A stretch of 64,000 nt of DNA, from IMG/VR virus record IMGVR_UViG_3300011678_000001, positions 1 to 64,000 of that record. The stretch is one strand, 5' to 3'. The DNA is from a virus (Duplodnaviria; Caudoviricetes). The notes below the pieces were generated by a model. That model had not been told where the DNA came from. It searched no databases and saw only the letters and a program-made list of their open reading frames with translations. Made by a program: the position numbers and the translations under genes. Positions 25,289-39,680 of this stretch are shown one piece after another (the first letter of the stretch is position 1; each line of letters starts with the position of its first letter).

Positions 25289-26860
25289 ATGAGTGTACCA
25301 CCAATTATCCAGTATCCGCTTGATCTGGTCGGAACGTCCCCTACGAACAAAATCGTAGGTGAGCGCCGCGAGATCAACACCGGTGCTGAGCGTGTATTCG
25401 TACCTAAAGCAGGTCCGTTCTACACCGAGAGCTTTGTCATCTATAATGACGAGACAGGCGAACCGCTGCGCCCCGTCGACGACTACCTCTTGGTACAACC
25501 TTTCGCACAAGCGGCACTGCGAAGCGGTAAAGATGTTCAATCGGCTATTGTGCTGAAGATCCCTGCCCCGGTGATTGTCCGACTGGATTATCAGGTCGTG
25601 GGCGGTGAGTATTCCTGGAACCTCGGGGCCTTGGCAGATCTGATCGCTGAGCTTAACCTCGATGAGCGGGCGGTCAAGTGGGGGTCGATCATTGGTCGTC
25701 CGATCATGTATCCGGCTGCGCCGCACATCCACGACATCGGTGACACCTACGGTTGGGAATACGTGGTGTGGCAGTTGGAGCGGGTCAGCAACGCCATCCT
25801 GGTGGGTGACGAGGCGTCTCACGAAGAACTGCGTCAGCAGATGCTCTACCTTGATGAACAGCAGCAACTGAAGATCGACGCGGTCGAAGACAAGGTTGTT
25901 GAACACATCGAGGACATGGGTAACCCGCATCAAACCACCAAAGCACAGGTGGGTCTGGGTTCGGTGGATAACTTCCCGACCGCTACGGATGTGGAGGCCA
26001 ACGCGGGCACTGCATTGAACCGTTTCATGGTGCCGGGCACGACCACGGTGCTGGCCAGCCGGATTGCCAACGAAGCAGTCAATGTTCACGAAGCCAAGAA
26101 GACCAACCCGCACGGTGTGACCAAAGCGCAAGTGGGTTTGGGGAACGTCGACAACTTCCTGACGGCTACCCAAGCACAAGGCGAATCGTCCACCGTCAAC
26201 GACAAGTTCATGACGCCGCTTCGGACGTACCAAGCAATCATGGTCCATGCCGGTACACTGTTGAACACGCACGTGAACAACAAGAACAACCCGCATGAAG
26301 TCACTAAGGCACAAGTAGGCCTTGGGTCGGTGGATAACTTCCAAACCGCCAGTCGTACTGAAGCGGTCGAAGGCACTTCCAATGCACGCTTCATGACCCC
26401 GCTGCGGACCAAAGAAGCGATTGATGCCATTGCCGGTAACCTGCTGAATGCTCACGTTCAAAACCTGAGCAATCCACACCAGGTGACCAAGGCGCAGGTA
26501 GGGCTCAGCGTTATTCCGAACTCTATCACCCGTAGCCGGACGTCTAACACAGACGCGTCGCTGCTGACAGCAGGCGGAATGTATGATCACGTCAACTCGG
26601 CTGACCATGACAACCGCTATGTACGCCTGAATACGACCACCAACACCAGTCTGCGGATCGTGAGCAACAAACTGCAGTGCTACATCAGTGGTGCTTGGCG
26701 TCAAATCTGGCCCGCGACCTGGACCGGACATGCGGCTGAAGGCGCAGCGGACCCATCGAACACCGGGCAAGAGATTCAGCTGCTGGTAGCCGGGGGTCGT
26801 CTGTATGCAACCGTGGCTGGCGCTTGGCAACAGGTATGGCCGGCGCAGTGGACGGATTAA
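25289..26860 (+). CDS. Tail fibre protein, paralogue of the previous gene
   Basis: Homologous N-terminus (YPLDLVG...FVPKAGPFYTES), four NPH-VTKAQVGL repeats, duplicated Trp-rich C-terminal motif. Confidence 0.8.
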   Translation: MSVPPIIQYPLDLVGTSPTNKIVGERREINTGAERVFVPKAGPFYTESFVIYNDETGEPLRPVDDYLLVQPFAQAALRSGKDVQSAIVLKIPAPVIVRLDYQVVGGEYSWNLGALADLIAELNLDERAVKWGSIIGRPIMYPAAPHIHDIGDTYGWEYVVWQLERVSNAILVGDEASHEELRQQMLYLDEQQQLKIDAVEDKVVEHIEDMGNPHQTTKAQVGLGSVDNFPTATDVEANAGTALNRFMVPGTTTVLASRIANEAVNVHEAKKTNPHGVTKAQVGLGNVDNFLTATQAQGESSTVNDKFMTPLRTYQAIMVHAGTLLNTHVNNKNNPHEVTKAQVGLGSVDNFQTASRTEAVEGTSNARFMTPLRTKEAIDAIAGNLLNAHVQNLSNPHQVTKAQVGLSVIPNSITRSRTSNTDASLLTAGGMYDHVNSADHDNRYVRLNTTTNTSLRIVSNKLQCYISGAWRQIWPATWTGHAAEGAADPSNTGQEIQLLVAGGRLYATVAGAWQQVWPAQWTD

Positions 26861-26900: not shown

Positions 26901-27410
26901 ATGTTACAGAAAATCGATTTTCAGTTCCAAGGCATTACCGAAGAACTGCTGATGGTGGACGAGTTTCTGTCAAGCCCCCACCCTTACGAACAAGGGCTGG
27001 TCAAGTACGTGTACAAGGATGCCTCCTTTGGGCTTAACAGCCCCATGGAGTATCTGGAGCACTGCGATGACAAGCCCATCAAGGTTGAAGGCTATGAACG
27101 CCTGAATGCCACGATGTTCCGCGAGTGTCAACGGCTGGCAGACTACTTTGGCCACATCGGCTACGTGTCCTGTCACCTGTTCATCTCGCCTAAGGGTTCA
27201 TCCAGTTTCTCGATGCACACCGATCCAGATGACGTGGTGGTCCATGTCATCACCGGTGGCAAAGATTTCGAATCCATCGGTCAACGTGAGTCGCTTAAGG
27301 CAGGCGAAGTCCTGTACATCCCGCGCAACCACCCACACCGTGCCATCAACACTGACAGTTCCCTCATGCTGAGTTTTGGCTTGGAGCTGTTCCTGGAGCA
27401 AAAGCTTTGA
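26901..27410 (+). CDS. JmjC/cupin-type Fe(II)/2OG oxygenase
   Basis: HTDPDDV (HxD)...GGK...LKAGEVLYIPRNHPHRA. Start ATG 26901. Confidence 0.8.
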   Translation: MLQKIDFQFQGITEELLMVDEFLSSPHPYEQGLVKYVYKDASFGLNSPMEYLEHCDDKPIKVEGYERLNATMFRECQRLADYFGHIGYVSCHLFISPKGSSSFSMHTDPDDVVVHVITGGKDFESIGQRESLKAGEVLYIPRNHPHRAINTDSSLMLSFGLELFLEQKL

Positions 27411-27412
27411 GC

Positions 27413-28447
27413 ATGAACAAAACCATCTACGTCAAAACCACCGGGACCTGTAACCTGGATTGTCATCACTGCTTCACCAATGGCAAGAACGGGGACAAGA
27501 CCCAGTTCGACCCAGACGAGACAGCCGAGTGGGTCCGGTCGTTCATGGCCAAATACCCCAAGGACACCCACTACCACATGGAGTTCCATGGTGGCGAGCC
27601 TTTCTTGGTACCGGTGGAAAAGCTCAAACGCTATGCGGATCAGTTCATCGATCATCCGCATGTGACCATGTGTGCCAACAGCAACCTGACCTTCAAGTTG
27701 ACCGACGCGCACATTGCGTTCATTCAGGATTACTTTGGCGGTTTCATTGGGACCAGTTGGGACCATTGGATTCGTTGGGGTAACGACAAGCAGTTCCAGT
27801 TGTGGAAACGCAATCTGGAAACGTTGAAGAGTCATGATGTGGGGATTGCCCTCAAGGTGTCGGTGAGTCGGCAACTGTTGACCATGACGCCTGACTGGTT
27901 CTTGGACCAGATGGAAAGCCTGGCCGTGGACGAAGTGTCCTTGGAACGGTTGACCATGGACGGCAGTGCGCAATGTAACGTGGGCATCTTCCCGGACAAT
28001 GAAGAACAGGACAACTGGTACCTGGCGCTCTATCACCGTTATAAAGCCCGCAATGGGCGGGTGAAGATCAAGACGCTGGACATCATTGAGGAGAAGCTTA
28101 AGACCAACCGAGTCAAGGTCGACACCAACTGCCGCAACTGTGAGCAGAACCTGGTGACGATCAACTCGGACGGTTCGCTCTCCGGCTGCCCGAACGCGGC
28201 AGCTTCTCTGCACCATGCCCGTCTTGAAGACGGTGTGGATGCATTCTTGACCTCAGAAGGGTTGCTCAAGGAAATCACCGAAGAGCTGACCTGGAATGAT
28301 CCCTGTCTTTCGTGCGATGTGTTCGACCTGTGTGGTGGCGATTGCCATCGACTGCCTTGGCAGAATGGACGCTGTGGGGGTCTGAAGAACACCCTGCGTT
28401 ACCTGTCTGGTCGTAATCAGCAATCCAATTTGATTTTAAAGGTGTAA
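27413..28447 (+). CDS. Radical SAM protein 1 with SPASM-like C-terminus
   Basis: CNLDCHHC, FHGGEP, C-terminal CRNC..GCPN..CLSCDVFDLCGGDC..RC. Confidence 0.9.
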   Translation: MNKTIYVKTTGTCNLDCHHCFTNGKNGDKTQFDPDETAEWVRSFMAKYPKDTHYHMEFHGGEPFLVPVEKLKRYADQFIDHPHVTMCANSNLTFKLTDAHIAFIQDYFGGFIGTSWDHWIRWGNDKQFQLWKRNLETLKSHDVGIALKVSVSRQLLTMTPDWFLDQMESLAVDEVSLERLTMDGSAQCNVGIFPDNEEQDNWYLALYHRYKARNGRVKIKTLDIIEEKLKTNRVKVDTNCRNCEQNLVTINSDGSLSGCPNAAASLHHARLEDGVDAFLTSEGLLKEITEELTWNDPCLSCDVFDLCGGDCHRLPWQNGRCGGLKNTLRYLSGRNQQSNLILKV

Positions 28448-28448
28448 C

Positions 28449-29000
28449 ATGACTGAACAGATTACCCGTCAACGGTTGGCCAACGAAGGCAACTGGCGTA
28501 TTCGGGATCGCTGTAACAGCGGTATCAGTTGGGGAACCAACAACTATCCAGCCAACTCTGATCCGGGTTGGTTTGGCGGCACCACCGGCGGCTTTGGTCA
28601 CACGCTCAGCCGAGGCAATTTCGCGGCCGGTGAACCCAATGTAGCCCAGACAGTGGCGGCTCTGAGAGCCTTTGCCAACAACTGGGGTGGTGTTCGTCTC
28701 ACGCGCATCCTGATTTACCGGACCAAGTCCGGCTACTCCAGCGGTAACGGTGACATCCTGGAATACGATGGGACCGCCGTGGCAAACACCGCGTACGGTG
28801 TCGGTAACTTTGCAGCGTCAGCGGCGATGTCGACCATGCGCGATGGCGTGGACATGGATCTGGCCGGTCTTCAGACCGCTCTGGACGATCTGTGGAACAC
28901 CTACGTTGCCTATGCCCGTAACAACACAGCCACCCTGTCCCGCGTCATCTGCCACACCAGCTGCCACAGTAACTGTCACTGCGCCCGCGGTCGGCGGTAA
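28449..29000 (+). CDS. Candidate substrate/precursor protein with C-terminal CHxx repeats
   Basis: 183 aa, Gly/Asn/Ala-rich, ends VICHTSCHSNCHCARGRR; starts 1 nt after the rSAM1 stop. Confidence 0.7.
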   Translation: MTEQITRQRLANEGNWRIRDRCNSGISWGTNNYPANSDPGWFGGTTGGFGHTLSRGNFAAGEPNVAQTVAALRAFANNWGGVRLTRILIYRTKSGYSSGNGDILEYDGTAVANTAYGVGNFAASAAMSTMRDGVDMDLAGLQTALDDLWNTYVAYARNNTATLSRVICHTSCHSNCHCARGRR

Positions 29001-29024
29001 CACCCATGACCTGTCATGCAACCA

Positions 29025-29046
29025 GGAGCTGGCGTGCGCCAGCTCC
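29025..29046 (+). other. Strong hairpin downstream of the candidate precursor gene
   Basis: GGAGCTGGC-GTGC-GCCAGCTCC with no U tract. Confidence 0.6.
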
Positions 29047-29065
29047 ATCAACCGAGAGCCTCACC

Positions 29066-29821
29066 ATGAGCGAACAGCCAATCGCCCCCATTCAGATTCG
29101 TACCACTGCGCCGATTCCGGCTGCAGACCTCAAGCGTAAGTTCACAGAAGACATCCAGTTTGTCATCGACGTTGATAACAGTCGACTGAAGGGTCGGGCC
29201 TTTCTGACCTACCTGTCGAACCTGAACATCAACTGCAAGTTGGAGTTCCAGTCAAACGATGCATTGTTTGCCCTGCTGGGTGAATACTTGGCATCGACGC
29301 TGCTGGTCAAGGTACCGGATTTGGAAGACCTGGCCATGAACGTGATGTTGGCCGCTTCAGGCCGTCAGCATGTGTTGGCGTTCGATCCGTCTGAGTTCAT
29401 CGATACCCACGCCGATGCCATTAACACCTGGCTCAAGCGTCTGTGCTCCCTCCCGTTGTTTGCCCTGTACTGCCAACCACAGTTCAAGGAGGAGATCGAG
29501 CAGAGCTTCCCAGAAGACACTGATGAATCCACGGTGGGGATCAACTTCGTTCGGTTGATCGAGCATGACTTCTTCCCGTTGATGATGGCGGGGATTGATG
29601 AGTCAGAGTACAGCTGGAACAAGACCTTCTTCAACGAATACATCTTCGCCGGTGACAACCTGTTCAAGTTCTTTGCGAGCATGAACAATCCCTTCTTTGT
29701 AGGGATCTTGGGCAGCCAGTGCCCGGATGAATTCCAAGCCATCCTGCCGCCGATGCAAAGCGTGCTGGAAAAGACTTCCCTGATCGTGAAGGAAATCGAA
29801 CATGTATCATCTTCGCAGTAA
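29066..29821 (+). CDS. Hypothetical protein in the rSAM cluster
   Basis: 251-aa ORF from ATG 29066 (MSEQPIAP); overlaps the next gene. Confidence 0.7.
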   Translation: MSEQPIAPIQIRTTAPIPAADLKRKFTEDIQFVIDVDNSRLKGRAFLTYLSNLNINCKLEFQSNDALFALLGEYLASTLLVKVPDLEDLAMNVMLAASGRQHVLAFDPSEFIDTHADAINTWLKRLCSLPLFALYCQPQFKEEIEQSFPEDTDESTVGINFVRLIEHDFFPLMMAGIDESEYSWNKTFFNEYIFAGDNLFKFFASMNNPFFVGILGSQCPDEFQAILPPMQSVLEKTSLIVKEIEHVSSSQ

Positions 29822-30857
29822 AGCCTACGTCGAGATCGACTCGCGTATCACCCGTGAACACCCGTATGTAGCCTTCGGTCAGCATGTGGGTTACGAGCAC
29901 TGCCCGGTGGAAAACGAAATCGCTGCGACCCAGTTGGGTTACGCTGATTCGCTGGACACCATGAAGCCTGAAGCCTTCGCTAAAGTGATGGCTGAAGCCT
30001 TCGCCAGCAAGGACAAGGTGTTCATCTTTGCCGATGGCAAGACGTACCTGCGTTTGTACGCCATGGCGGTCAAAGCCCTGCTGCCGTCAGTGACCCTCGA
30101 TGTGTTCCGCTGGATCTTCCTGTGCAAGAAGGCGACTTTCAACGTCTCCTTGCTGAACATCCGCAAGCCCGCGTCGAACATCCTGGCCGAAGTCGAAATC
30201 AACGCCAAGACCATCGAGGCGCTGTACAAGTTCAACGATCCGCTTCAGGACGTCATGACTGAGCTGATGTGCGCCGCCCCTGACGAAGTGTCGTTGGAAT
30301 GGCGCATCCTGCGTCTACTCACCGATGACCGCGTGGGTAAACTGCCCAAGGTCCTGCGTAACATCCTGCGCCGCATTGCATTGGCCAACACCCATGATGC
30401 CCTCGATGTTTGGGGTCGCATGATTGCTGACCCTGGCATGTGGGAGTTCGCCGGCTGCGACATGGACACCCTGATGAACGGCAACAGTGTCTTTGAAGGC
30501 ACGTTGAACTTCCACTACCTGAACAACCCCATGTTCTTGCAGCCGGGTGTGTTCGAGAACGAACCGACCCGTGACTGGGTACTGGGGCTGCTCCGTGAGT
30601 TAATCAAGGTGCTGGAGTTCTGTGACGAAGGTCCGACCGCCGGTCGTACACGTTTGATTCTGGAGTTGATGACCTCAGACACGAACATCTACACCCCTGA
30701 AGCCTTGAAAGAACGCGTCATGGTCATGTTCAAAGGCGCTAAGCGCCTGGCCCTGCCGAACGCTGATTCGGGCAAGTACGATGAGAACCTCATCCGCTAC
30801 GTGCTGCACGAGGACGTTGATGTCCTGCGTCAGTGCGTCCAAGGAGCGAAATGGTAA
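29802..30857 (+). CDS. Hypothetical protein in the rSAM cluster
   Basis: 351-aa ORF with AAGGA RBS; TAATG coupling to rSAM2. Confidence 0.75.
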   Translation: MYHLRSKAYVEIDSRITREHPYVAFGQHVGYEHCPVENEIAATQLGYADSLDTMKPEAFAKVMAEAFASKDKVFIFADGKTYLRLYAMAVKALLPSVTLDVFRWIFLCKKATFNVSLLNIRKPASNILAEVEINAKTIEALYKFNDPLQDVMTELMCAAPDEVSLEWRILRLLTDDRVGKLPKVLRNILRRIALANTHDALDVWGRMIADPGMWEFAGCDMDTLMNGNSVFEGTLNFHYLNNPMFLQPGVFENEPTRDWVLGLLRELIKVLEFCDEGPTAGRTRLILELMTSDTNIYTPEALKERVMVMFKGAKRLALPNADSGKYDENLIRYVLHEDVDVLRQCVQGAKW

Positions 30858-31852
30858 TGGACCTGATTCCCGTAGTGAACATCCTCCAAGAGAAGAAAGG
30901 TAAGTGGAAAGAAGCGCACCTGATTCTGTTTGAGTACTGTAATCTACGGTGTTCGTTCTGCCATCAAGACCACGACTCCAAGGTGGGGTTTGACAGCATC
31001 GCTGAGAAAGTCGAGACGCTCATTGCCAGTACCGATCCACGTCAACCGTACGTGGTGAACATGACCGGCGGTGAGCTGTTCCTCGATGAGTTCCCGGATG
31101 AACTGTTCGAGCAATATTACCAGGCTGGCAAGCGGATCTTCGAGCACTTCGAGAACGCCTTGCTGGTCCTGGGTACCAACCTGGTCTATCATAAGGTCGA
31201 GCGTCTGGTTGAACTTGTCAAGCGCCTTCAAGCCCATGGCAAGGTCCAGATTGCAACGTCCTATGATCCCGCTGGCCGGTTTGACCGGGTGGGGCGGATG
31301 CTGTTCTTCCATAACCTGCACAAGGTGAAAGAATACGTCAGGACCGTCAACGTTGTGATCACCAAGCAGAACATCGAGGCCTTCCTAAGTGAAAACGAAG
31401 GATACGAAGTGGCCTGGATGTGCGAACACTTCGATGTGTACTTCGACCATTACATCCCCAGTCAGATGTACGAGTACATCCAGCCGGATGAAGACCTGAT
31501 CAGTCAGCTGTACCTGAAACTCAATGAGCGCTACCCGAACTCCTATCCAATCAAGGACTGGAAACAGAATGCGTTCAATGAGACCACCTGCCGCTCTACG
31601 AAGATCGTCAACAAAGATGGGATCGTGAGCACCTGTTGGTCAGAAGCCGGCAAGAACGCCATCCTCGATGAAGCCGAAGGTCTCAAAGCCAAGGACGAAG
31701 CGGAGATGCGGTTTGTCGAGAAGTACGACTGTTTCTCCTGTGAGTATTACTCGCGGTGCGGCATGCGGTGCTTCCTCCATCACTCGTTCATCGAGGATGG
31801 AAATTCGACCTGCCAGATCAAAGAGATGTTCTCTAAGATTATCGAAGCGTGA
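30857..31852 (+). CDS. Radical SAM protein 2
   Basis: CNLRCSFC, MTGGEL, C-terminal CFSCEYYSRCGMRC...C. Confidence 0.9.
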   Translation: MDLIPVVNILQEKKGKWKEAHLILFEYCNLRCSFCHQDHDSKVGFDSIAEKVETLIASTDPRQPYVVNMTGGELFLDEFPDELFEQYYQAGKRIFEHFENALLVLGTNLVYHKVERLVELVKRLQAHGKVQIATSYDPAGRFDRVGRMLFFHNLHKVKEYVRTVNVVITKQNIEAFLSENEGYEVAWMCEHFDVYFDHYIPSQMYEYIQPDEDLISQLYLKLNERYPNSYPIKDWKQNAFNETTCRSTKIVNKDGIVSTCWSEAGKNAILDEAEGLKAKDEAEMRFVEKYDCFSCEYYSRCGMRCFLHHSFIEDGNSTCQIKEMFSKIIEA

Positions 31853-31903
31853 CATACGGGCTCCGGGCAACCGGAGCCTATATGCCGTTTGTATTTATTT
31901 TTA
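31853..31903 (+). terminator. Hairpin terminator (CATA-stem-TATGCCG type)
   Basis: CATAC-GGGCTCCGG-GCAA-CCGGAGCC-TATATGCCGTTTGTATTTATTTTT. Confidence 0.75.
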
Positions 31904-32020
31904 TACTTAAGTCAGCTCGTATGAATTTTAGTTAATAGGAATTCATCTGCATTCCCATGGTATGACCTAGACAGCAAGGTGCTGTCCTCCCTTGCTGCAT
32001 TTCTTACCGAGACCCTCCTC

Positions 32021-32185
32021 ATGAACGTACAAGAATTCCCCCTGACGCCGGAAGGCTACCAACAAGCCATGCAGTGGCTGCGTGATGAAGGCCTCGATCC
32101 AATCGAGTACGCCAACCGCGAACTGTCCACCGATGGCTACACCATCGTCAACATGGTCAACCACCTGCGTCAGCGTAATGCATAA
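32021..32185 (+). CDS. Small hypothetical protein
   Basis: MNVQEFPLTPEG...LRQRNA (54 aa), first gene after the internal terminator and a TATG site. Confidence 0.55.
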   Translation: MNVQEFPLTPEGYQQAMQWLRDEGLDPIEYANRELSTDGYTIVNMVNHLRQRNA

Positions 32186-32209
32186 CAGGTAGCCTAAGGA
32201 GTATTCATC

Positions 32210-33298
32210 ATCGACGTTATCCTGAAACCGACTGCGAGATGCAACTTCAAGTGTACGTTCTGCTCTAGCACGTACCTGAGCGATGATAATAAAGAAATCG
32301 TCGAACTCACGCAGGTCGAACGGTTTATCCAGCGATTCCCTGAGACCCGGACGGTCATCGTAAACGGCGGCGATCCGTTGATGATGCCGCCTCAGTATTA
32401 CTGGGATCTGATCGCCATCCTGGATCGATTAGAGTCAAAGGCCAGTATTTCGTTTACCACCAACCTCTGGCCCTTCTACAAGAAGCCTGAGCTGTGGGAA
32501 GAGTTGTTCCGGCATCCTCGTGTCGGCGTGACCACCTCGTTCCAATACGGGGATGGGCGCTTGAAAGGCGATGGTACGCCATTGACCGAAGCTGAGTTCA
32601 TCGCCATGAGCGATCTGTTCTTGGAACGCATCGGTTATCGGCCTGACTTCATTGCGGTGATTGACAAGGACAATGAACACACTGTGCTTGACACCGTACG
32701 CCTTGCCCAGCGACTCGGGGTAGAGGCTAAAGTCAATTATGCTGTCGCCTCGGGCCCTGTGGTGGTCAACAAAGGCATCGCCATGGGGCATGCGGAAAGC
32801 ATGTACACCCAAGCGGACATGTACAAAGCCTACATCGAGATTTACGATGCAGGGCTCATGCAGTGGGAGTTCAACACCAAGCAGATGGTCAAGCGCATCA
32901 AGACGCAGAACACCATCTGCCCCTTGTCCCGTGAGTGTGACAGCGGGATTCGCAGCATCCAACCGGGTGGTGGGTATTTCTCCTGTGGCGCGTTCGGTGA
33001 TGACCTCAAATACCCCATCGACTTTGAAAAAGAGATGAATGGGGAGTTCTTCCAGCCGTTGAGCAATCAGGAAGAGTTGTGGTCGATGAAGGAGGCGTGC
33101 AATGAATGCCCGATGTTCCTCATCTGCAACGGGTGCCGCAAGACCATCACCGACACCAAACGGTTAGGCTTGGCTGAGCATCACTGCCAGACCATGAAGA
33201 GCATTGCCCCACGGCTCATCGAACTGAACGGGATGCAGGATTACCTGACCCCCACCCCTTACGTGGACGAATCGGTCCAGATCATCGCCCGAGGTTAA
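32210..33298 (+). CDS. Radical SAM protein 3 (non-canonical ATC start or mutated start)
   Basis: The frame extends upstream of the ORF-track start: IDVILKPTARCNFKCTFCSS...NGGDP. In-frame TAA at 32195; TAAGGAG lies 8 nt before ATC 32210. C-terminal CNECPMFLICNGC...HHC. Confidence 0.8.
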   Translation: MDVILKPTARCNFKCTFCSSTYLSDDNKEIVELTQVERFIQRFPETRTVIVNGGDPLMMPPQYYWDLIAILDRLESKASISFTTNLWPFYKKPELWEELFRHPRVGVTTSFQYGDGRLKGDGTPLTEAEFIAMSDLFLERIGYRPDFIAVIDKDNEHTVLDTVRLAQRLGVEAKVNYAVASGPVVVNKGIAMGHAESMYTQADMYKAYIEIYDAGLMQWEFNTKQMVKRIKTQNTICPLSRECDSGIRSIQPGGGYFSCGAFGDDLKYPIDFEKEMNGEFFQPLSNQEELWSMKEACNECPMFLICNGCRKTITDTKRLGLAEHHCQTMKSIAPRLIELNGMQDYLTPTPYVDESVQIIARG

Positions 33299-33299
33299 C

Positions 33300-33494
33300 A
33301 TGGCTATTCTCACCCACGAAACCCTGCTGATCAATCTCAAACAAGCACTGGAGCGCGAGGCTGACACCATTGTCCGTCAACTGATGGCCCGTGGCCAAAG
33401 TATGACAACCATTGGGTTTGCAGACTTCGAGCTGGCCATGCGCGATGCGCTTATGGACCTTGCCAAGCAACACGCCAAGACCCATCGAGATTAA
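33300..33494 (+). CDS. Small hypothetical protein
   Basis: 64 aa, GAGG RBS, tightly coupled to neighbours. Confidence 0.6.
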   Translation: MAILTHETLLINLKQALEREADTIVRQLMARGQSMTTIGFADFELAMRDALMDLAKQHAKTHRD

Positions 33495-33498
33495 CAAC

Positions 33499-33729
33499 AT
33501 GGCTTACATCGATCCTTTCGCTGAACCTGCCGACCCCGTCGTCGCCGAGTCAGCCCGTATCAACCGTGAACTCAAAGCCCTCTTTAACCGTGAGGCTGAG
33601 TACTTCGAACGACAACTGGCCAAGCGAAGCCTGATGCTCAATGATCGCGGCCTGGCTCAAACTGAGACCAATTTGCGGGAGTTCATCGATAAAGCCATCG
33701 CTGACATCGATCGCAGTCTTAAGGGGTAG
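33499..33729 (+). CDS. Small hypothetical helical protein
   Basis: MAYIDPFAEPADP... 76 aa from ATG 33499. Confidence 0.6.
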   Translation: MAYIDPFAEPADPVVAESARINRELKALFNREAEYFERQLAKRSLMLNDRGLAQTETNLREFIDKAIADIDRSLKG

Positions 33730-33789
33730 TGCTATGTTGATGAACAACCTGGTGCTGGCGATCCGTGTGGCCATTCTTGAGGGGGCGTC

Positions 33790-34794
33790 ATGTCGCGACC
33801 GCAAATAAACCTCAGCATCAATCCATCGTACTACTGCAACTTGCGGTGCGAGTTCTGTTATTTGACTCCTGAGCAATTGGGGGACCGGACGCGTCTGGAG
33901 TTGGACAAGTTCGAAGAGGTGTTGCTCGACGTCATGCAGCATTATGACATCGGTCATGTCGACATCTATGGGGGCGAAGTCCTGTTGTTGCCGCCCGAGT
34001 ACTTGCAAGGGATGAAAGACATCCTGCTCACGTACGGCATTGATGACATTGTTCTGGTGACCAACCTCACCCTGACCAATGAGATCACCGACGATCTGGA
34101 TTTCGAACTCTCGGTCTCCTACGACTTCGGAGCACGGGAGATGCATGAGCGGGTGTTCAACAACCTGCTGATGCTCCCGCGCCCGTACACCATCCTGACC
34201 TTGGCCAGTCGGAAGTTCTTGGACACCGTGAGTGTGGATGAATTCGTCCAGACCATGAACATGCTGAGCAATGCCAAGGACGTCGAGATCAAGCCGTACA
34301 GCTCCAATCAAGCCAATGCCCACCCAGTGTACTACGATGAGTTCGAACGCTTCGTATGGGCGGTTATAGAGCACCCTGAGCGCACGTTCTACTTCGAGAA
34401 TGAGCGGCAGGTAAAGGAAGCGGCTGAAGGGCTTCGAAATGCCTTCAGTGACGACCACCTGTACATCACCCCGACCGGTCAATTGGCCGTGTTGGAGTTC
34501 GATGCCAATGACAATGAGTTCTTCCTGCCCGTTGATGGGGTAGAAGGTTACCTTGCGTGGTGTGCAAAAGAAAAGCAGGCCGTGACCACCAATGGTCATT
34601 GCGGGACCTGCACCTACATGGGACATTGCCTTTCCGAGCACTTGCGGGAGGTCACCGACTTGTCCCGTTCCTGTAACGGTTTTAAGGGGTTACTCGACCT
34701 ATGGACAACCCACACCTCGTCCAACACCGACAGCGCTTGGAGATCACGCTTGATCTATTCCGAGGCTGCCAGCACCACTGCTCCGGATGCATGA
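33790..34794 (+). CDS. Radical SAM protein 4
   Basis: CNLRCEFC, IYGGEV, C-terminal CGTCTYMGHC...SC; GAGGGGG RBS. Confidence 0.9.
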   Translation: MSRPQINLSINPSYYCNLRCEFCYLTPEQLGDRTRLELDKFEEVLLDVMQHYDIGHVDIYGGEVLLLPPEYLQGMKDILLTYGIDDIVLVTNLTLTNEITDDLDFELSVSYDFGAREMHERVFNNLLMLPRPYTILTLASRKFLDTVSVDEFVQTMNMLSNAKDVEIKPYSSNQANAHPVYYDEFERFVWAVIEHPERTFYFENERQVKEAAEGLRNAFSDDHLYITPTGQLAVLEFDANDNEFFLPVDGVEGYLAWCAKEKQAVTTNGHCGTCTYMGHCLSEHLREVTDLSRSCNGFKGLLDLWTTHTSSNTDSAWRSRLIYSEAASTTAPDA

Positions 34795-35729
34795 TCGACC
34801 GCACCATGGGTGGGGACGTTAATGACCTGCCTGAGCTGCAAGCCCTCATTGAAGAAATGGTGGGCGTCGGGTACGTGGCGTTTGATTTGGGCATTGGCCC
34901 AACGGACTACATGAGTGCCGACAACAAAGATGAAGTCATGGAGCACCCGATCTTCCAGTCCATGGCGCAACTGTTTCATCAGGTGACCTTCAACGCGGCC
35001 TTCCTGGAGAAGGACCTGAAGAAGTACACCGCCATGTGTCAGGAGATTGATGTCTGTGTGCCGGGTAAACCGATTCGCTTCTTGATTCCGGCGGCCCCAC
35101 ACTTCTTCAAGACCAATAAGTTCAGTGATATGATCAACATGAAGCTGAACCACATCAAAGACAACCTGCACAACGCCTTCTTGAATGAAGCAGGCTTTGT
35201 GGTCAACTGCACCAAGGACACCGTCGATGACGAGTTCGAGGAGATGCTGATCAAAGGCTTTGATGTGGAGTTCCCGGTCGACAAGGATGACATCTTAAAC
35301 ATCCCGTACGGGCGCGCTCCAATCAAGGACTTGCAAGTGGCGCAACAGATCCAGCGCATGAGCTATCGGATCAGTTCGTACTACAAGCAGTTGAATGGGA
35401 CTGATGAACGGCGCAAGAACCCGGACCTGTGCCTGAACACCGGGACCATGATGAACCTGCTGTACACCGACGGCAAGCTGTACTGGGTGCCCTTCTTGAA
35501 AGACGACTGTCCGTTCCTAGAAGACGCCTTTACCGTGCCCAAGCCCTGGACTATGGATAACTTGCTAGCAACTCGTCAGCAGGCCTTGGACGCGTCTTTA
35601 GAGTACCTGAAAGACACGCCGTGCATGGAGTGCCCGTACGTCTCCAGTTGTTCGGAGAAGGGCATCACCAGCATCATGAAATTCATGGGCATCAAAGACT
35701 GCTTGGTAGGGCTTGAGTATGCACAGTGA
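34701..35729 (+). CDS. Divergent radical SAM-like protein 5
   Basis: CQHHCSGC, GIGPTD in place of GGE, C-terminal CMECPYVSSC...C. Confidence 0.75.
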   Translation: MDNPHLVQHRQRLEITLDLFRGCQHHCSGCMIDRTMGGDVNDLPELQALIEEMVGVGYVAFDLGIGPTDYMSADNKDEVMEHPIFQSMAQLFHQVTFNAAFLEKDLKKYTAMCQEIDVCVPGKPIRFLIPAAPHFFKTNKFSDMINMKLNHIKDNLHNAFLNEAGFVVNCTKDTVDDEFEEMLIKGFDVEFPVDKDDILNIPYGRAPIKDLQVAQQIQRMSYRISSYYKQLNGTDERRKNPDLCLNTGTMMNLLYTDGKLYWVPFLKDDCPFLEDAFTVPKPWTMDNLLATRQQALDASLEYLKDTPCMECPYVSSCSEKGITSIMKFMGIKDCLVGLEYAQ

Positions 35730-36759
35730 ACGTGTCTCACAAACCTTCAACTTAGGGTTGGAGGTGTTGAAAGGGTGTGGCTACAGTTGTTCAGGCTGCA
35801 CCGTGGATAAGAACTTTGCGGATTTTGAAGTCCCTGAAGAAGATGCCCGCGCCCTGCTAGCGCTACTCGAGGACCTCAAGCAGCAAGACTGGCGGATGTT
35901 GGAGCTGAAGATTGGCCCCACTGACATCACCAGTTCGGACAATGGCTTTGCGGTGTTGCAACACCCGGTGATCAAACAGATTGCCTCGTACTACAAAGTC
36001 TTGACCTTGAACGCTGCGATGCTGCATGACCGTAACCTGCCTGAACTCGCGGCGCTGTGCGATGAGCTGATGCCGGGCAAGTACGTCAACATCGGCACCC
36101 CTTTTACGTTGAAGAACGTGGCCAACGAAAAGTACATGGCGATGATGAAGGAGCGGCTGGCGTATTTCCAAAGCCTGCTGAAGAAAGCCTCCTTCACCCG
36201 TCTGTACGCCACAATCAACATCGAGGAGGAAAACCTCAAGCAGTTCAATGCCGAATCCTTCAGCCTGATCCGTAACTACGATTTCGGCTCCGGGATTGAC
36301 AAGGTCATTGAGTTCCCGTTTGTCAATGCCCGTCAAGGGTTTGATAACCTGCTCAACGCCGAGCGGTTTAAACGGGACATCAAGCAGTTTGCCGACTTCT
36401 CCAAGACGCGGGTCAACACGCATGAATTCATCCCGTTGATCCCAGGCGTCAAGGAAGGGTACGAGTACACCTACCGCACGGGTAAGCTCTATTCCACCAT
36501 CGTGTTGGTGGAGAACCTCACCCTGTACAAAGACAAGTACGAACTGGCCCGCCCTTGGACGGGTGCACGGTTGCTCGAGCACCGTGAAAATGCGTACATC
36601 AACAACCTGATCAAGTACAGCGAACACCCAGAATGTGGGGACTGCTGTTTCTTGGACCACTGTGCCCGGTGTGATGTGCAGCATCTGATGGAGGAGACCG
36701 GGTCTGACCGGTGCCTGATCGAGATGAAGAACCGCTGGGACCTCATGGGAGAACACTGA
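35719..36759 (+). CDS. Divergent radical SAM-like protein 6
   Basis: CGYSCSGC, KIGPTD, C-terminal CGDCCFLDHCARC...C; paralogous to protein 5. Confidence 0.75.
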   Translation: MHSERVSQTFNLGLEVLKGCGYSCSGCTVDKNFADFEVPEEDARALLALLEDLKQQDWRMLELKIGPTDITSSDNGFAVLQHPVIKQIASYYKVLTLNAAMLHDRNLPELAALCDELMPGKYVNIGTPFTLKNVANEKYMAMMKERLAYFQSLLKKASFTRLYATINIEEENLKQFNAESFSLIRNYDFGSGIDKVIEFPFVNARQGFDNLLNAERFKRDIKQFADFSKTRVNTHEFIPLIPGVKEGYEYTYRTGKLYSTIVLVENLTLYKDKYELARPWTGARLLEHRENAYINNLIKYSEHPECGDCCFLDHCARCDVQHLMEETGSDRCLIEMKNRWDLMGEH

Positions 36760-37190
36760 TGGATCACCTGCCGTATAAACCCTTCCAACGCCTTTATGAC
36801 GAATTGGTGCAAGAGCACAGCGATGCTTTTGAACTGATGGAGTTCGTGGAGGACGAGGAGTTGGTGGATAACGCCTTGAAGTATTTCGAGTCGGCTACCT
36901 TCCCGTTGATCTACCCGGCCAAGAGTTACGCCGTGGCGATCATCTACGCCTTCAAGCTCAAGGAACTCTACGGTCTGGACATCTACACAGTGCTGGACGA
37001 TGCCGACCTGTTCTTGGGTCAGGATGAGTACTTCGTTCCGTACAGTCAAGACCCGGCCACCTATGACGCCATCATCGAGAAACTCGAGAAGGTGGATAAC
37101 TGGTTGGAGAAGGGCTGGGCACCGAAGTCTGTGCAGTACTGCCTGCTCGAGTGCACGGAAGCCGGTATCACGTCATTGACGGAGGTGTGA
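36759..37190 (+). CDS. Hypothetical acidic protein in the rSAM cluster
   Basis: TGATG coupling; 143 aa MDHLPYKPF... Confidence 0.7.
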   Translation: MDHLPYKPFQRLYDELVQEHSDAFELMEFVEDEELVDNALKYFESATFPLIYPAKSYAVAIIYAFKLKELYGLDIYTVLDDADLFLGQDEYFVPYSQDPATYDAIIEKLEKVDNWLEKGWAPKSVQYCLLECTEAGITSLTEV

Positions 37191-37191
37191 G

Positions 37192-37749
37192 ATGGAAACC
37201 ATCAGTCTATGGGCTACCCCATTGGCAAAGATCAACGTGGCCGATCAGTTCGATATGGCTGCCTACGCCGATGAAGTCTTCACCCTGTTCAGCATGACCA
37301 ACGGAGAAGACGACCGTCAGCGTTGCATCGATGAAGAATTGTTTCCAATCATCCTCACCATGCGTGATGAGGTGATCACCCCAGCGGTGCAAGCGTACTG
37401 CCAAGAACACTTTGGCGAAGCCATGTTTCCCTTCTACGTGGAAACCAATGGTAAATGGATCGAAAATGGGGAAGGTCTGTACCCACATCTGCATCCAGGC
37501 AGTATCGTTTCAGCGATCTGCTATCCGGGCGATTCCACCAACGCCTTGACCATGTTTGATCCCAGGATGAATGCGATGCGTGGCTACCCCAAGCGCATGC
37601 GTAACCATCACTTCCCCAACTTCAAGATCAGTCCGAAGCAAGGGGATGTGTGGATCTTCCCCAGCTATGTGCAACACAGCGTCAGCCATGTGACTGAAGA
37701 CATGCGCCTGTCCTTGCTGCACGAATACTACCAAACCAAGGACCTGTAA
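37192..37749 (+). CDS. Putative 2OG-Fe(II) oxygenase (TIGR02466-like)
   Basis: PHLHPGSIVSAICYP...FDPR...PKQGDVWIFPSYVQHSV...RLSL. Confidence 0.8.
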   Translation: METISLWATPLAKINVADQFDMAAYADEVFTLFSMTNGEDDRQRCIDEELFPIILTMRDEVITPAVQAYCQEHFGEAMFPFYVETNGKWIENGEGLYPHLHPGSIVSAICYPGDSTNALTMFDPRMNAMRGYPKRMRNHHFPNFKISPKQGDVWIFPSYVQHSVSHVTEDMRLSLLHEYYQTKDL

Positions 37750-37750
37750 C

Positions 37751-38308
37751 ATGGAACTGATTCGCCCCTGGGTGACCACGATTGGAAAGTTCAATGTCAG
37801 CGATCAATGCGACCTTGATGAGATCTGTGGGGCCTTGTTAGCCAGCAGCTGCAAGGTCAATGGAAGCTTCCCACCAATGGATGACAGTGATCCGGCTGTC
37901 CAACCGTTGGTGCGACTGCGTGACGATGTGATTACTCCTGTGGTTATTGAGTACATCGCCACTCAATTTGGGATGCGCCTTGAACGCACGGAGTTGGACA
38001 TTCTGACACAATGCGTGGTGATCCCGCCTGGAGGCGATCTAGAGACGCACATCCATGCAATGAGCAGTGTGACCGTGGTCATGTACCCCGTGGAGTCAGC
38101 TGCTCGAATGATCGTCCTTGATCCTCGCACCACGGCGTGTCGAGGGTATCCACGTGACATCGTGACCTCGCACTTTGGTAACCTGCGTATTGAACCGGCA
38201 CCGGGCGATGTGTACATCCTGCCCAGCTATTTACAGCATTCGGTCAATACCGTTGGGGATGAACTGCGATTATCCTTTGTCAACGACTACTTCATTGCCT
38301 CTGAATAA
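37751..38308 (+). CDS. Putative 2OG-Fe(II) oxygenase (TIGR02466-like), paralogue
   Basis: THIHAMSSVTVVMYP...LDPR...PAPGDVYILPSYLQHSV...RLSF. Confidence 0.8.
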   Translation: MELIRPWVTTIGKFNVSDQCDLDEICGALLASSCKVNGSFPPMDDSDPAVQPLVRLRDDVITPVVIEYIATQFGMRLERTELDILTQCVVIPPGGDLETHIHAMSSVTVVMYPVESAARMIVLDPRTTACRGYPRDIVTSHFGNLRIEPAPGDVYILPSYLQHSVNTVGDELRLSFVNDYFIASE

Positions 38309-38320
38309 CGGAACCTTTCC

Positions 38321-38977
38321 ATGTCTGAAGAATTCGAACTCTATACCGGCGCTGACCGCGGCCAATTCCGGGTGATGCGCCTGCTGGACAATGCTGGTGT
38401 TCAATTACGTGCCACTGCCCGTATCAAAGATGCGGTGGTGTTCAATTTCCTCTCTGCATTGCAGTACGCCATCATCGGCTACGGCCTGGAATGGTGGAAA
38501 GACGGCGACCCTGCGCCTCAGGACGGGGGTGAGCCTCATCCGTACATCCCTAAGGGTCGTCCTAACGTCAACAAGCTGTACTTCCGAGGCAAGACCAGTC
38601 TGACGCCCAAGATGCTGCACTTGGAAGACGCCATCATCAACGACTTCCTGAACAACAAAGCGTTGGCAGATCCTATGACCCTGTTGTCGTACACACAGGA
38701 GTCTGCGGAGCAAGTGGCCAGTGCGGCTGAGTGGCGCCCTCTCATGAACAGTGCGTACTCCATCGCCAATGCCGTTCACATCACCCGACTGTCGACCACC
38801 CCGTCAACGCCGTTGACCATTGACAGCGAAGGGCTGCGCTTTGAGTACCGTCGTAACACGGACGAGAACCAGGTCTTCACGGGGATGCTAAAGGACTACA
38901 AATTCGAGAAACTCCGAGACTGCTATCCGGCAATGCTCGATCTGATTGAGAGTGAACAAAATGGCAGCAACAGTTAA
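38321..38977 (+). CDS. Hypothetical protein
   Basis: 218-aa ORF at the end of the cluster; overlaps the endolysin start. Confidence 0.7.
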   Translation: MSEEFELYTGADRGQFRVMRLLDNAGVQLRATARIKDAVVFNFLSALQYAIIGYGLEWWKDGDPAPQDGGEPHPYIPKGRPNVNKLYFRGKTSLTPKMLHLEDAIINDFLNNKALADPMTLLSYTQESAEQVASAAEWRPLMNSAYSIANAVHITRLSTTPSTPLTIDSEGLRFEYRRNTDENQVFTGMLKDYKFEKLRDCYPAMLDLIESEQNGSNS

Positions 38978-39680
38978 TCAGTTAAAAGCCCTGCAGCGTG
39001 GCATGAAAGCCATGGGGCTGTACACCGGTGCCATCGATGGTGCTTGGGGTCCTCTGAGTCACGGGTCGTTCATGAACGCCCGCCGTATGACCGAAGCTGT
39101 GCGTAAGAAAGCGGTGGCCGAACATGGCCTTGATCCGATCTTCTTAGCCTACTGCAACGCCACAGCATGGTCGGAAAAGGTCAGTGATGAGTTCGTCAAG
39201 ATCGTCAAGCACATTGCTGAAAGCTTGGCCATGCCCAATAACGGCCCGGACGACCTGATGGCCTGCATGGCGTTTGAGACAGGTGAAACCTTCTCTCCGA
39301 CCATCCGCAATGGCGCCGGTGCTCCGTACTTTGGTCTGATCCAGTTCGGTGCAGCCGCTGCCAAAGACATCGGTACCACCACCGGTGCGCTGATCAAGCT
39401 GACTGCTGAAGAGCAGCTCTTCTACGTGCAGAAGTTCTTCGCGCCGTACAAAGGCAAGTTGAAGAACCTGGGTGACGTCTATCTCAGAATACTCTGGCCC
39501 GCCGGTGTGGGTAAACCAGACGACTACGTTCTGTGGGACGAGAAGACCCGACCAACGACCTACGTGCAGAACAAGGGTCTGGACATCAACAAGGATGGGA
39601 AGATCACCAAAGCTGAGTGCTGCGCCAAGATCACCCAGAAGTTGGTTGCAGGTCTTCATCCGAAGAACCTCAAGGTCTGA
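38961..39680 (+). CDS. Modular endolysin (peptidoglycan-binding domain + lysozyme-like transglycosylase)
   Basis: LQRGMKAMGLYTGAIDGAWGPLS (PG-binding), MACMAFETGETFSP, GLIQF, YVQNKGLDINKDGKITKAE. Confidence 0.85.
   Translation: MAATVNQLKALQRGMKAMGLYTGAIDGAWGPLSHGSFMNARRMTEAVRKKAVAEHGLDPIFLAYCNATAWSEKVSDEFVKIVKHIAESLAMPNNGPDDLMACMAFETGETFSPTIRNGAGAPYFGLIQFGAAAAKDIGTTTGALIKLTAEEQLFYVQKFFAPYKGKLKNLGDVYLRILWPAGVGKPDDYVLWDEKTRPTTYVQNKGLDINKDGKITKAECCAKITQKLVAGLHPKNLKV

Follow-up and report, generated by a model that had tools for sequence, protein, structure and literature searches.

Radical S-adenosylmethionine (SAM) enzymes are known to mature ribosomal peptides and a few proteins: the radical SAM/SPASM system QhpD/QhpC cross-links the gamma subunit of quinohemoprotein amine dehydrogenase through Cys thioethers, and anSME converts a Cys or Ser of sulfatases to formylglycine. 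In the antiphage system HXS (HxsA to HxsD), the radical SAM enzymes HxsB and HxsC mature the HxS-repeat protein HxsA, with a mass change of +8 Da on SHRSS (Li et al., Nat Commun 2026, PMC13128918). Here we describe a cassette of genes in the first 64,000 nucleotides (the window) of IMG/VR record IMGVR_UViG_3300011678_000001, a jumbo phage of the Caudoviricetes. Between positions 26901 and 38977 it encodes six co-oriented CxxxCxxC proteins (rSAM1 to rSAM6), a small cupin, two PF13759 oxygenases (oxy1 and oxy2), four proteins that match no family (unkA to unkD) and a 183-aa protein with a tail of Cys-His repeats (the CH-tail protein). The cassette is real and conserved, and what would be new in it is a variant of radical-SAM protein maturation. 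The reading that we favour, with moderate confidence, is that the cassette enzymes modify the tail of the CH-tail protein, a virion protein of the tail-fibre module; we favour it because of the co-occurrence of the genes, the conservation, repeat variation and apparent accessibility of the tail, the kinship of the enzymes to known maturases, the presence of the protein in virions, the linkage to fibre genes and the precedent of HXS.

HXS is the closest published precedent for the cassette. In both, the substrate (in the cassette, the proposed one) is of protein size and bears short tandem repeats with His, two or more radical SAM enzymes are dedicated to it, and there are small helper proteins, and in HXS, as in the role that we propose for the cassette, modification completes a functional protein and no peptide is released. 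The two differ in that HXS serves bacterial defence, through a periplasmic, peptidoglycan-anchored effector with a signal peptide, and in that HXS has HxS repeats without Cys, two enzymes and no oxygenases, whereas the cassette has four to six enzymes. When tested with the HXS models (TIGR03976-03979), the window enzymes gave 27.1 bits to the HxsB model against a cut-off of 370, and 27.2 and 19.3 bits to the HxsC model against 268; neither the CH-tail protein nor any of unkA to unkD matched HxsA or HxsD. QhpD and anSME resemble the cassette in that SPASM enzymes act (in the cassette, would act) on a folded or foldable protein that stays in a larger assembly, and rSAM1 has its best PDB and NCBIfam matches in anSME, with 47 bits to TIGR03942 against a cut-off of 349 (for QhpD, 27 against 453). 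Unlike the cassette, both are single-enzyme systems, and neither is viral or fibre-linked. The last tail repeat and the following Arg (C-H-x-[AS]-R) have the C...R spacing of the sulfatase motif C-x-P-x-R, but compared with the anSME substrate motif C/S-x-P/A-x-R the tail has no conserved Pro or Ala at position +2.

The Cys/His-tailed protein noticed in a preliminary description of this stretch is real and, to judge from sequence comparison, makes up a family of its own, with 79 relatives among 5.8 billion proteins, mostly on metagenomic contigs of 200-275 kb. Its last 16 residues follow the consensus [IV]-(C-H-x-x)3-R-G-R-R, three Cys-His repeats followed by Arg-Gly-Arg-Arg. In an alignment of 40 sequences (mean column identity 32%), whose bodies are 31-73% identical to that of the window protein, residues C168, H169, C172, H173, C176, H177, R180, R182 and R183 are invariant; an N-terminal motif, GISWGTNNYP, is nearly so, and the body shows variable insertions. 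The pattern CH..CH flagged 154 distinct sequences, and removal of three rSAM1 C-termini left 151 CH-tail proteins, 145 of which have exactly three repeats and 149 of which end in R-x-R-R. The exceptional tails have 2, 4, 13 or 14 repeats, and two tandem CH-tail genes are present in four loci (L083, L086, L087 and L090); this variation in repeat number, together with gene duplication, is the behaviour of a substrate core and is unlike that of fixed ligand sets. In some relatives (L026:6488-7186, L037:6006-6716 and L009:3-362) the 13-14 Cys-His repeats stand in blocks parted by NV(P)V.

An alternative, which we consider unlikely, is that the tail is a metal or Fe-S motif and the protein a scaffold, metallochaperone or electron carrier, with the enzymes acting on the fibres, on another virion protein or on a small molecule. 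It is favoured by the invariance of only Cys, His and Arg side chains, the fourth repeat position being S, N, A, Q, D or R with no strict H-x-S; by the i, i+4 spacing, which would put the ligands on one helix face; and by the many Fe-dependent enzymes in the cassette. A range of 2 to 14 repeats and occasional gene duplication would be odd for such a site.

The AlphaFold2 (AF2) model of the CH-tail protein has a confident alpha/beta body (predicted local distance difference test, pLDDT, 88.7) and a low-confidence, disordered tail (about 50), which suggests that the tail is exposed and accessible. Searches with this model found no solved fold relative (lowest E 0.15 in Foldseek PDB, highest Z 4.0 in VIA wide), and a BFVD search recovered only the protein's own family plus three proteins of 504-660 aa from one uncultured myovirus. 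These three (A0A8S5USJ7, A0A8S5USJ8 and A0A8S5USV2 of Myoviridae sp. ctijX18) contain a domain like the CH-tail body (Foldseek E 1e-4 to 8e-4), and on the modelled folds they may be longer or fused relatives. No fused or longer CH-tail forms of 411-2000 aa were found, which is weak evidence.

The cassette core consists of rSAM1, the CH-tail protein, unkA, rSAM2, rSAM3 and rSAM4, usually with the cupin, and the rest is accessory. The nearest public genome, that of Pseudomonas phage pPa_SNUABM_DT01 (DT01), has the identical gene order, and Ralstonia phage RSL2 and Burkholderia phage S13 have the tail-fibre genes fibA/fibB, the cupin, rSAM1, the CH-tail protein, unkA, an rSAM5/6-type gene, rSAM2 to rSAM4, two oxygenases and unkC. 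rSAM1 and rSAM3 were found in exactly the same 15 phage records, among them Agrobacterium phage Atu_ph07 and Sinorhizobium phage Phosso, both of 470-490 kb; the carriers among cultured phages are Pseudomonas, Ralstonia, Burkholderia, Agrobacterium and Sinorhizobium phages. Atu_ph07, termed Rak2-like by its authors (PMC6102473), is an unrelated phage of 490 kb in which the order is cupin (gp172), rSAM1 (gp171), CH-tail protein (gp170), unkA (gp169), rSAM2 (gp168), rSAM3 (gp165) and rSAM4 (gp164), without rSAM5/6 and without a PF13759 gene.

To sample co-occurrence we anchored on rSAM3, not on the CH-tail protein, and fetched 80 loci out of 332 related IMG/VR stretches. A CH-tail gene lies directly 3' of rSAM1 in 61 of the 67 cases in which rSAM1 has enough downstream sequence, and the six exceptions are rSAM1 paralogues or rearranged loci with the CH-tail gene elsewhere; unkA, rSAM2 and rSAM4 are present in nearly every locus with enough flank. 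The CH-tail gene was not seen in two loci with the full 10 kb upstream, L061, which begins within unkA so that the gene would fall past its edge, and L053, to which we return below. The preliminary description had proposed a comparison of synteny and had named, among the findings that would speak against it, homologous radical SAM genes present apart from the CHxx protein and the tail genes; such genes essentially do not occur without the CH-tail gene, L053 being the one clear exception. Because this co-occurrence extends across unrelated phage lineages and, as described below, to Bdellovibrionota, we regard the genes as one probable maturation cassette tied to the CH-tail protein.

Two contigs in assemblies of Gram-positive bacteria also carry cassette genes. 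A 4.3-kb contig from an isolate assembly of Dysosmobacter segnis (L009, NZ_JACOQI010000054.1) encodes cassette proteins 48-71% identical to those of the window (71% for rSAM3), and is likely to be Pseudomonas-type jumbo phage DNA contaminating a Firmicute assembly. A 208-kb contig binned as uncultured Gemella sp. (L010) has a diverged cassette whose CH-tail protein ends ...CHSSCHSNCHHR, with no RGRR, and may represent a jumbo phage of a Gram-positive host. The supplement on phages PhiRP12/RP31 contains a different set of radical SAM genes behind YomR-type fibres, and no link of these to the CH-tail family could be made.

Evidence that the CH-tail protein is part of the particle comes from Atu_ph07, whose virions were analysed by electrospray ionization tandem mass spectrometry of 13 gel slices (PMC6102473). 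Table S5 of that study lists gp170 at 31.89 kDa with 8 unique peptides and 35% coverage in slices 1-9, most abundant in slice 1, the top of the gel (PMC6102473). The masses that we computed for the CH-tail homologue (31.89 kDa), gp176 (66.07 kDa) and gp177 (21.66 kDa) equal those listed; the gp numbering therefore matches, and gp170 is the CH-tail homologue. Apart from two with 1-2 peptides only, the remaining proteins with their peak in slice 1 are of 76-139 kDa, and the upstream neighbours gp176 and gp177 are in the virion list, from which the cupin, the radical SAM proteins and gp169 are absent (PMC6102473). We conclude provisionally, from one homologue in one phage, that the CH-tail protein is a virion protein, and the suggestion that the pathway acts on a virion substrate gains support from this proteome. 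Detection of the CH-tail homologue in virions, and not of the enzymes, is also at odds with a metal-carrying role for it.

Fibre genes are neighbours of the cassette almost without exception, and in the window, DT01 and RSL2 lineages it lies downstream of fibA/fibB-type genes. Among ten IMG/VR loci without fibA/fibB-type fibres, the gene just upstream of the cupin is in nine a tail-fibre PHROG match with the C-terminal domain phrog_22593/19602, the same domain that forms the C-terminus of Atu_ph07 gp176. When species-representative genomes were scanned with the CH-tail alignment, matches came from four contigs of Bdellovibrionota metagenome-assembled genomes and from three phage-like contigs in other bins. 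The Bdellovibrionota loci contain rSAM1, a CH-tail protein ending ...SCHG[AS]RGRR, an rSAM1 paralogue, unkA, rSAM5/6, rSAM2, rSAM3, rSAM4 and unkC, without the cupin and without a PF13759 gene. One 110-kb contig is chromosomal and has genes for cytochrome oxidase subunit I, for AcrB and for a class I Glu/Gln aminoacyl-tRNA synthetase (PF00749) as well, and on it three Peptidase_S74 (S74) fibre genes lie directly upstream of the cassette. Three tandem same-strand S74 genes within about 10 kb of the cassette were found in all three Bdellovibrionota genomes examined, and in two of these the cassette-adjacent genes are three of the four S74 genes of the genome. A strong rSAM3 orthologue is present in 11 of 301 sampled Bdellovibrionota genomes (about 4%), several times on megabase contigs.

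The neighbouring fibres thus fall into three unrelated C-terminal types, WRxVWPxQW, phrog_22593 and Peptidase_S74, with no common motif, so that the cassette is linked to fibre genes as a class and not to a single docking domain. That the fibre genes adjoin the cassette makes their products the obvious alternative substrates if the CH-tail is a metal motif, but with three unrelated C-terminal types and no conserved motif they would be a poor single substrate, and the cassette contains no genes for small-molecule biosynthesis or transport. Tail-fibre accessory proteins encoded downstream of fibre genes are familiar from T4 gp38 and the Tfa-type adhesins and chaperones. Like these, the CH-tail protein is of about 180 aa and its gene lies just past fibre genes; its homologue was detected in particles of one phage, and it has variable body insertions. 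No similarity to gp38 or Tfa was found in sequence or fold, and no T4 gp38/Tfa-type protein is known to need radical SAM enzymes.

All six CxxxCxxC proteins have this motif near the N-terminus, and the alignments of the rSAM1, rSAM3 and rSAM5/6 families show it without variation. Hidden Markov model (HMM) matches mark four of the six as predicted radical SAM enzymes: rSAM3 and rSAM4 lie clearly above the PF04055 gathering cut-off of 29.5 bits, and rSAM1 (29.1 bits) and rSAM2 are borderline, just below it (E about 1e-6). For rSAM5 and rSAM6 the assignment has a motif basis, the alignment of the pair showing C22, C26 and C29 and four C-terminal Cys to be invariant; aligned with rSAM1 by hhalign, the rSAM5/6 profile gave a probability of 4.7%. 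With the SPASM model TIGR04085 (cut-off 27) only rSAM1 scores above the cut-off (28.6 bits, against 17.7 for rSAM2), and a PF13186 search of the cassette enzymes gave no match. Of the six proteins, for all of which Cys-rich SPASM/twitch-like C-termini were first proposed, rSAM1 and rSAM3 each have eight invariant C-terminal Cys, and rSAM5/6 have four.

Against PDB profiles, rSAM1 is nearest to anSME (4.5e-11), followed by 8vpo (an unnamed radical SAM protein), CteB, ChlB and YydG, with ChlB and CteB at 1e-7. The best NCBIfam matches of the window enzymes are to the anSME, cyclophane, ranthipeptide, QhpD and HxsB families. Because all scores are far below the family cut-offs, the likeness is one without membership, and on this sequence evidence the cassette enzymes would work like the HXS, QhpD and anSME-type maturases without belonging to their families. 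It is very improbable that the enzymes instead modify nucleotides or the phage DNA and that the CH-tail protein is unrelated to them. Radical SAM enzymes and 2-oxoglutarate (2OG) oxygenases do occur in base-modification pathways, and there are weak N-terminal matches to the QueE and MoaA models, but these matches are to the generic radical-SAM core and far under cut-off. The block has no nucleotide-binding, transferase or kinase genes, it stands beside fibre genes in Bdellovibrionota chromosomes, and it is tightly coupled to the CH-tail gene; DNA hypermodification, already discounted in the preliminary description, is still unlikely.

Kinship to peptide maturases raises the further alternative that this is a true system for peptides made by ribosomes and modified after translation (RiPPs), in which a long leader, the body of 165 residues, precedes a 16-residue tail that is modified, cleaved and released as a bioactive peptide or metallophore. 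The repeated C-terminal core, the adjacent radical SAM/SPASM enzymes closest to peptide maturases, and a repeat expansion like that of multi-core precursors are as expected of a RiPP. rSAM1 matches the models of triceptide (YhhB, FxsB, AmcB, ChlB, HtkB/HaaB) and ranthipeptide (PapB/CteB) maturases at 1e-11 to 1e-12, scoring 45-46 bits with the cyclophane maturase models NF041707, TIGR04269, NF041718 and TIGR04261, below their cut-offs of 370-445. By analogy of the H-x-x units of the tail with the aromatic-x-x cyclophane motif, His-to-C-beta cyclophanes could form; a link of His C2 to Lys C-beta is on record for HtkB (PMC11499958). Ranthipeptide precursors resemble the tail in their Cys-rich cores. 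The cassette differs from triceptide and ranthipeptide systems in that its substrate would be a 183-aa folded virion protein and in that no protease or exporter was seen. The supposed leader is a conserved and confidently folded domain, nothing among the neighbours scanned was recognised as a protease, exporter or immunity gene, the whole protein was recovered from virions, and the fibre-gene link holds in Bdellovibrionota too. We also recognised no leader-recognition domain of the RiPP recognition element type, the radical SAM core beginning near residue 10. A released RiPP is therefore improbable, and two earlier suggestions, of a bioactive RiPP product and of typical RiPP maturases, have lost ground, the second because no RiPP or maturase family cut-off was reached.

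If the tail is the substrate, rSAM1 to rSAM4, with rSAM1 and rSAM3 of the SPASM type, would act by 5'-deoxyadenosyl radical chemistry on its Cys/His repeats. Candidate reactions are the formation of Cys thioether links or of His-to-C-beta cyclophanes, and the oxidation of Cys in the C-H-x-[AS]-R unit to formylglycine. Accessory steps in this phage would come from rSAM5, rSAM6, the cupin and both PF13759 oxygenases, and unkA, unkB and unkC would likely be non-catalytic helpers. The finished CH-tail protein would then become part of the virion, probably together with the fibres whose genes lie upstream, and would serve there in attachment or envelope penetration.

Several observations weigh against this proposal. 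Three Cys and three His at i, i+4 could simply be a metal site. Every window enzyme scores below the cut-offs of the characterised maturase families in NCBIfam, and rSAM5 and rSAM6 have no match in PF04055, NCBIfam or the PDB profile search. At locus L053 the enzymes are present with no CH-tail gene nearby, and a methyltransferase-like gene stands in its place. No common docking domain lies behind a physical link to the fibres, which are of unrelated types. The Atu_ph07 virions were purified with polyethylene glycol only, and a few non-structural proteins (ribonucleotide reductase, terminase and a single-stranded-DNA-binding-like protein) are listed at low counts (PMC6102473). Finally, the loading buffer as described names no reducing agent (PMC6102473), so that simple disulfide bonding, not an enzymatic cross-link, could account for gp170 migrating at high mass.

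The coordinates of the cassette and its surroundings are given in the table. On the + strand from 22.8 to 39.7 kb the order is fibA, fibB, cupin, rSAM1, CH-tail protein, unkA-unkB, rSAM2-rSAM6, unkC, oxy1, oxy2, unkD and a lytic transglycosylase. The preliminary description had placed a co-oriented block of about 12 kb with six CxxxCxxC proteins between a tail-fibre pair and an endolysin; the cassette genes all lie on the + strand at the positions that it gave, their motifs are present, and the borders are as described. fibA and fibB have matches in PHROG families of tail and virion proteins (lowest E 1e-130), and fibA is 63% identical to its DT01 homologue, with further homologues in RSL2 and S13. 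The G+C content of the block is continuous with that of its surroundings, with no break.

Features of the window in and around the cassette (positions are those of the window; aa, amino acids)
Feature	Position	Strand	Description	Basis or remark
fibA	22820..25219	+	tail-fibre/virion structural protein, 799 aa, fibB paralogue	PHROG 2163 (2e-130), PHROG 13857 tail protein
fibB	25289..26860	+	tail-fibre protein, 523 aa, directly upstream of cassette	NPHxVTKAQVGLG repeats, C-terminal WRQIWPAxW
cupin	26901..27410	+	small cupin, ~169 aa, HxD...H metal triad, putative accessory oxygenase	PF08007 39.5 bits, Cupin_2 33.7 bits
rSAM1	27407..28447	+	predicted radical SAM/SPASM, gene before CH-tail gene	CxxxCxxC, GGEP, 8 invariant C-terminal Cys
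CH-tail protein	28449..29000	+	183 aa, folded body and C-terminal tail ending CHTSCHSNCHCARGRR	79 homologues, AF2 pLDDT 88.7
tail	28950..28997	+	residues 168-183, CHTSCHSNCHCARGRR, proposed modification site	invariant residues in 40 sequences
hairpin	29025..29046	+	9-bp GC-rich hairpin past CH-tail gene	-22.4 kcal/mol over 60 nt past stop
unkA	29066..29821	+	251 aa from ATG 29066, core cassette protein	PHROG 20767; Atu_ph07 gp169, Bdellovibrionota
unkB	29802..30857	+	351 aa	44% identity to DT01 homologue; no family match
rSAM2	30857..31852	+	predicted radical SAM, Cys-rich C-terminus	PF04055 29.2 bits; orthologues in all lineages
hairpin	31859..31878	+	hairpin after rSAM2, AT-rich spacer next	-23.4 kcal/mol over 60 nt past stop
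small ORF	31979..32185	+	open reading frame (ORF) of at most 68 aa between rSAM2 and rSAM3	tblastn matches in 8 related loci; no known family
rSAM3	32210..33298	+	predicted radical SAM/SPASM, most conserved cassette enzyme, ATC start	PF04055 45.4 bits; 53-72% identity across lineages
rSAM4	33790..34794	+	predicted radical SAM	PF04055 33.7 bits; orthologues in all lineages
rSAM5	34701..35729	+	CxxxCxxC protein, rSAM6 paralogue (24% identity)	radical SAM by motif only
rSAM6	35713..36759	+	CxxxCxxC protein	radical SAM by motif only
unkC	36759..37190	+	143 aa, core protein, ATG overlaps rSAM6 stop	PHROG 20737; orthologues RSL2, S13, Bdellovibrionota
oxy1	37192..37749	+	PF13759 2OG-Fe(II)-type oxygenase, putative accessory	48.6 bits; PDB 2rg4, 3bvc
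oxy2	37751..38308	+	PF13759 oxygenase, oxy1 paralogue (36% identity)	32.9 bits
unkD	38321..38977	+	218 aa, close relatives only	homology
lytic transglycosylase	38946..39680	+	endolysin or tail lysin, downstream border	PDB 9udh 5.3e-42; PHROG 4928, 196

Adjoining cassette genes mostly overlap or are separated by 1-12 nt, but the cassette is not one unbroken unit, there being a gap of 354 nt with a strong hairpin after rSAM2 and one of about 490 nt after rSAM3. The hairpin and AT-rich spacer between rSAM2 and rSAM3 (window 31853-31978), together with the 354-nt gap, probably mark a transcription-unit boundary, so that the cassette would be split into two or more transcription units; in 34% of related loci this junction has a hairpin at least as strong as -15 kcal/mol. 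A scan for sigma-70 promoters and terminators found fewer sites in the block than in shuffled sequence. Between rSAM3 and rSAM4, at positions 33299-33789, the only ORFs are two short ones, 33300-33494 and 33412-33729, which overlap and match no family, and the corresponding gap in DT01 is 182 nt. The hairpin past the CH-tail gene was considered as the mark of a precursor gene and rejected: strong in the window, it is absent in relatives, the 60 nt past the gene having a median of -6.3 kcal/mol in 69 of these, and it is thus local, not conserved.

Between the in-frame TAA at 32195 and its CxxxCxxC motif, rSAM3 has no ATG, GTG or TTG, and since the motif lies upstream of any such codon the start is ATC 32210, which sits 8 nt past AAGGAG. 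ATC is also found at this position in two related IMG/VR phage types (L015 and L018/L019), other relatives having ATG, GTG or TTG. Insertions in rSAM3 of relatives, hinted at by long match ranges, are not real, as the DNA alignments are colinear. rSAM4 has a C-terminal extension of about 25 residues compared with DT01, which overlaps the start of rSAM5 by 94 nt (window 34701-34794).

The gene first described as encoding a JmjC oxygenase does have a cupin-fold HMM match and a metal triad, but its product is a minimal cupin. It scores above the cut-off of PF08007 (22 bits), although over 35 residues only, and above that of Cupin_2/PF07883 (27.2 bits); the sequence shows H-T-D and a later H, with no JmjC substrate-binding domains seen, and the PDB matches are weak and to small cupins. 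Orthologues are present in DT01, RSL2, S13 and Atu_ph07 (gp172). Both oxy1 and oxy2 exceed the PF13759 cut-off of 27 bits and fall short of that of TIGR02466 (33.6 and 21.7 bits against 62.5), so the oxygenase assignment stands at the level of PF13759 and not of TIGR02466; the closest structures, 2rg4 and 3bvc, are both uncharacterised. As the oxygenases are absent from the Bdellovibrionota versions, and PF13759 from the Atu_ph07 locus, they are not core parts. The AF2 model of unkA has a pLDDT of 95.3, and fold searches with it (Foldseek PDB, VIA and atlas) gave nothing usable, the best PDB match having Z 4.4 on 55 residues and the atlas matches a TM of at most 0.32 by query.

We found no paper on a virus that completes a part of its own particle by means of radical SAM enzymes, and targeted searches found no study of the cassette, only passing mention of it as "highly unusual" or in annotation lists. 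Papers on 332-Vera, PhiRP12/RP31 and S13 merely list cassette-type genes, and the comparative paper on jumbo phages by Iyer et al. does not discuss the cassette. Comparative evidence now supports the preliminary view of a cassette for protein modification, connected with the CH-tail protein and with fibre genes, and the cultured carriers DT01, RSL2, S13 and Atu_ph07 make tail modification directly testable. A bolder proposal, which we offer tentatively, is that unrelated phages and predatory Bdellovibrionota share a fibre-associated protein whose (Cys-His)3 tail is converted by at least four radical SAM enzymes into a new cross-linked or metal-binding group needed for recognising or breaching the envelope of the prey or host, which would be the first case of a virion protein matured by radical SAM enzymes. 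Modification of the tail, if it occurs, would represent new enzyme chemistry on a Cys-His repeat and a new step in virion assembly, and would reveal a component of attachment or invasion common to phages and predatory bacteria, with consequences for host range.

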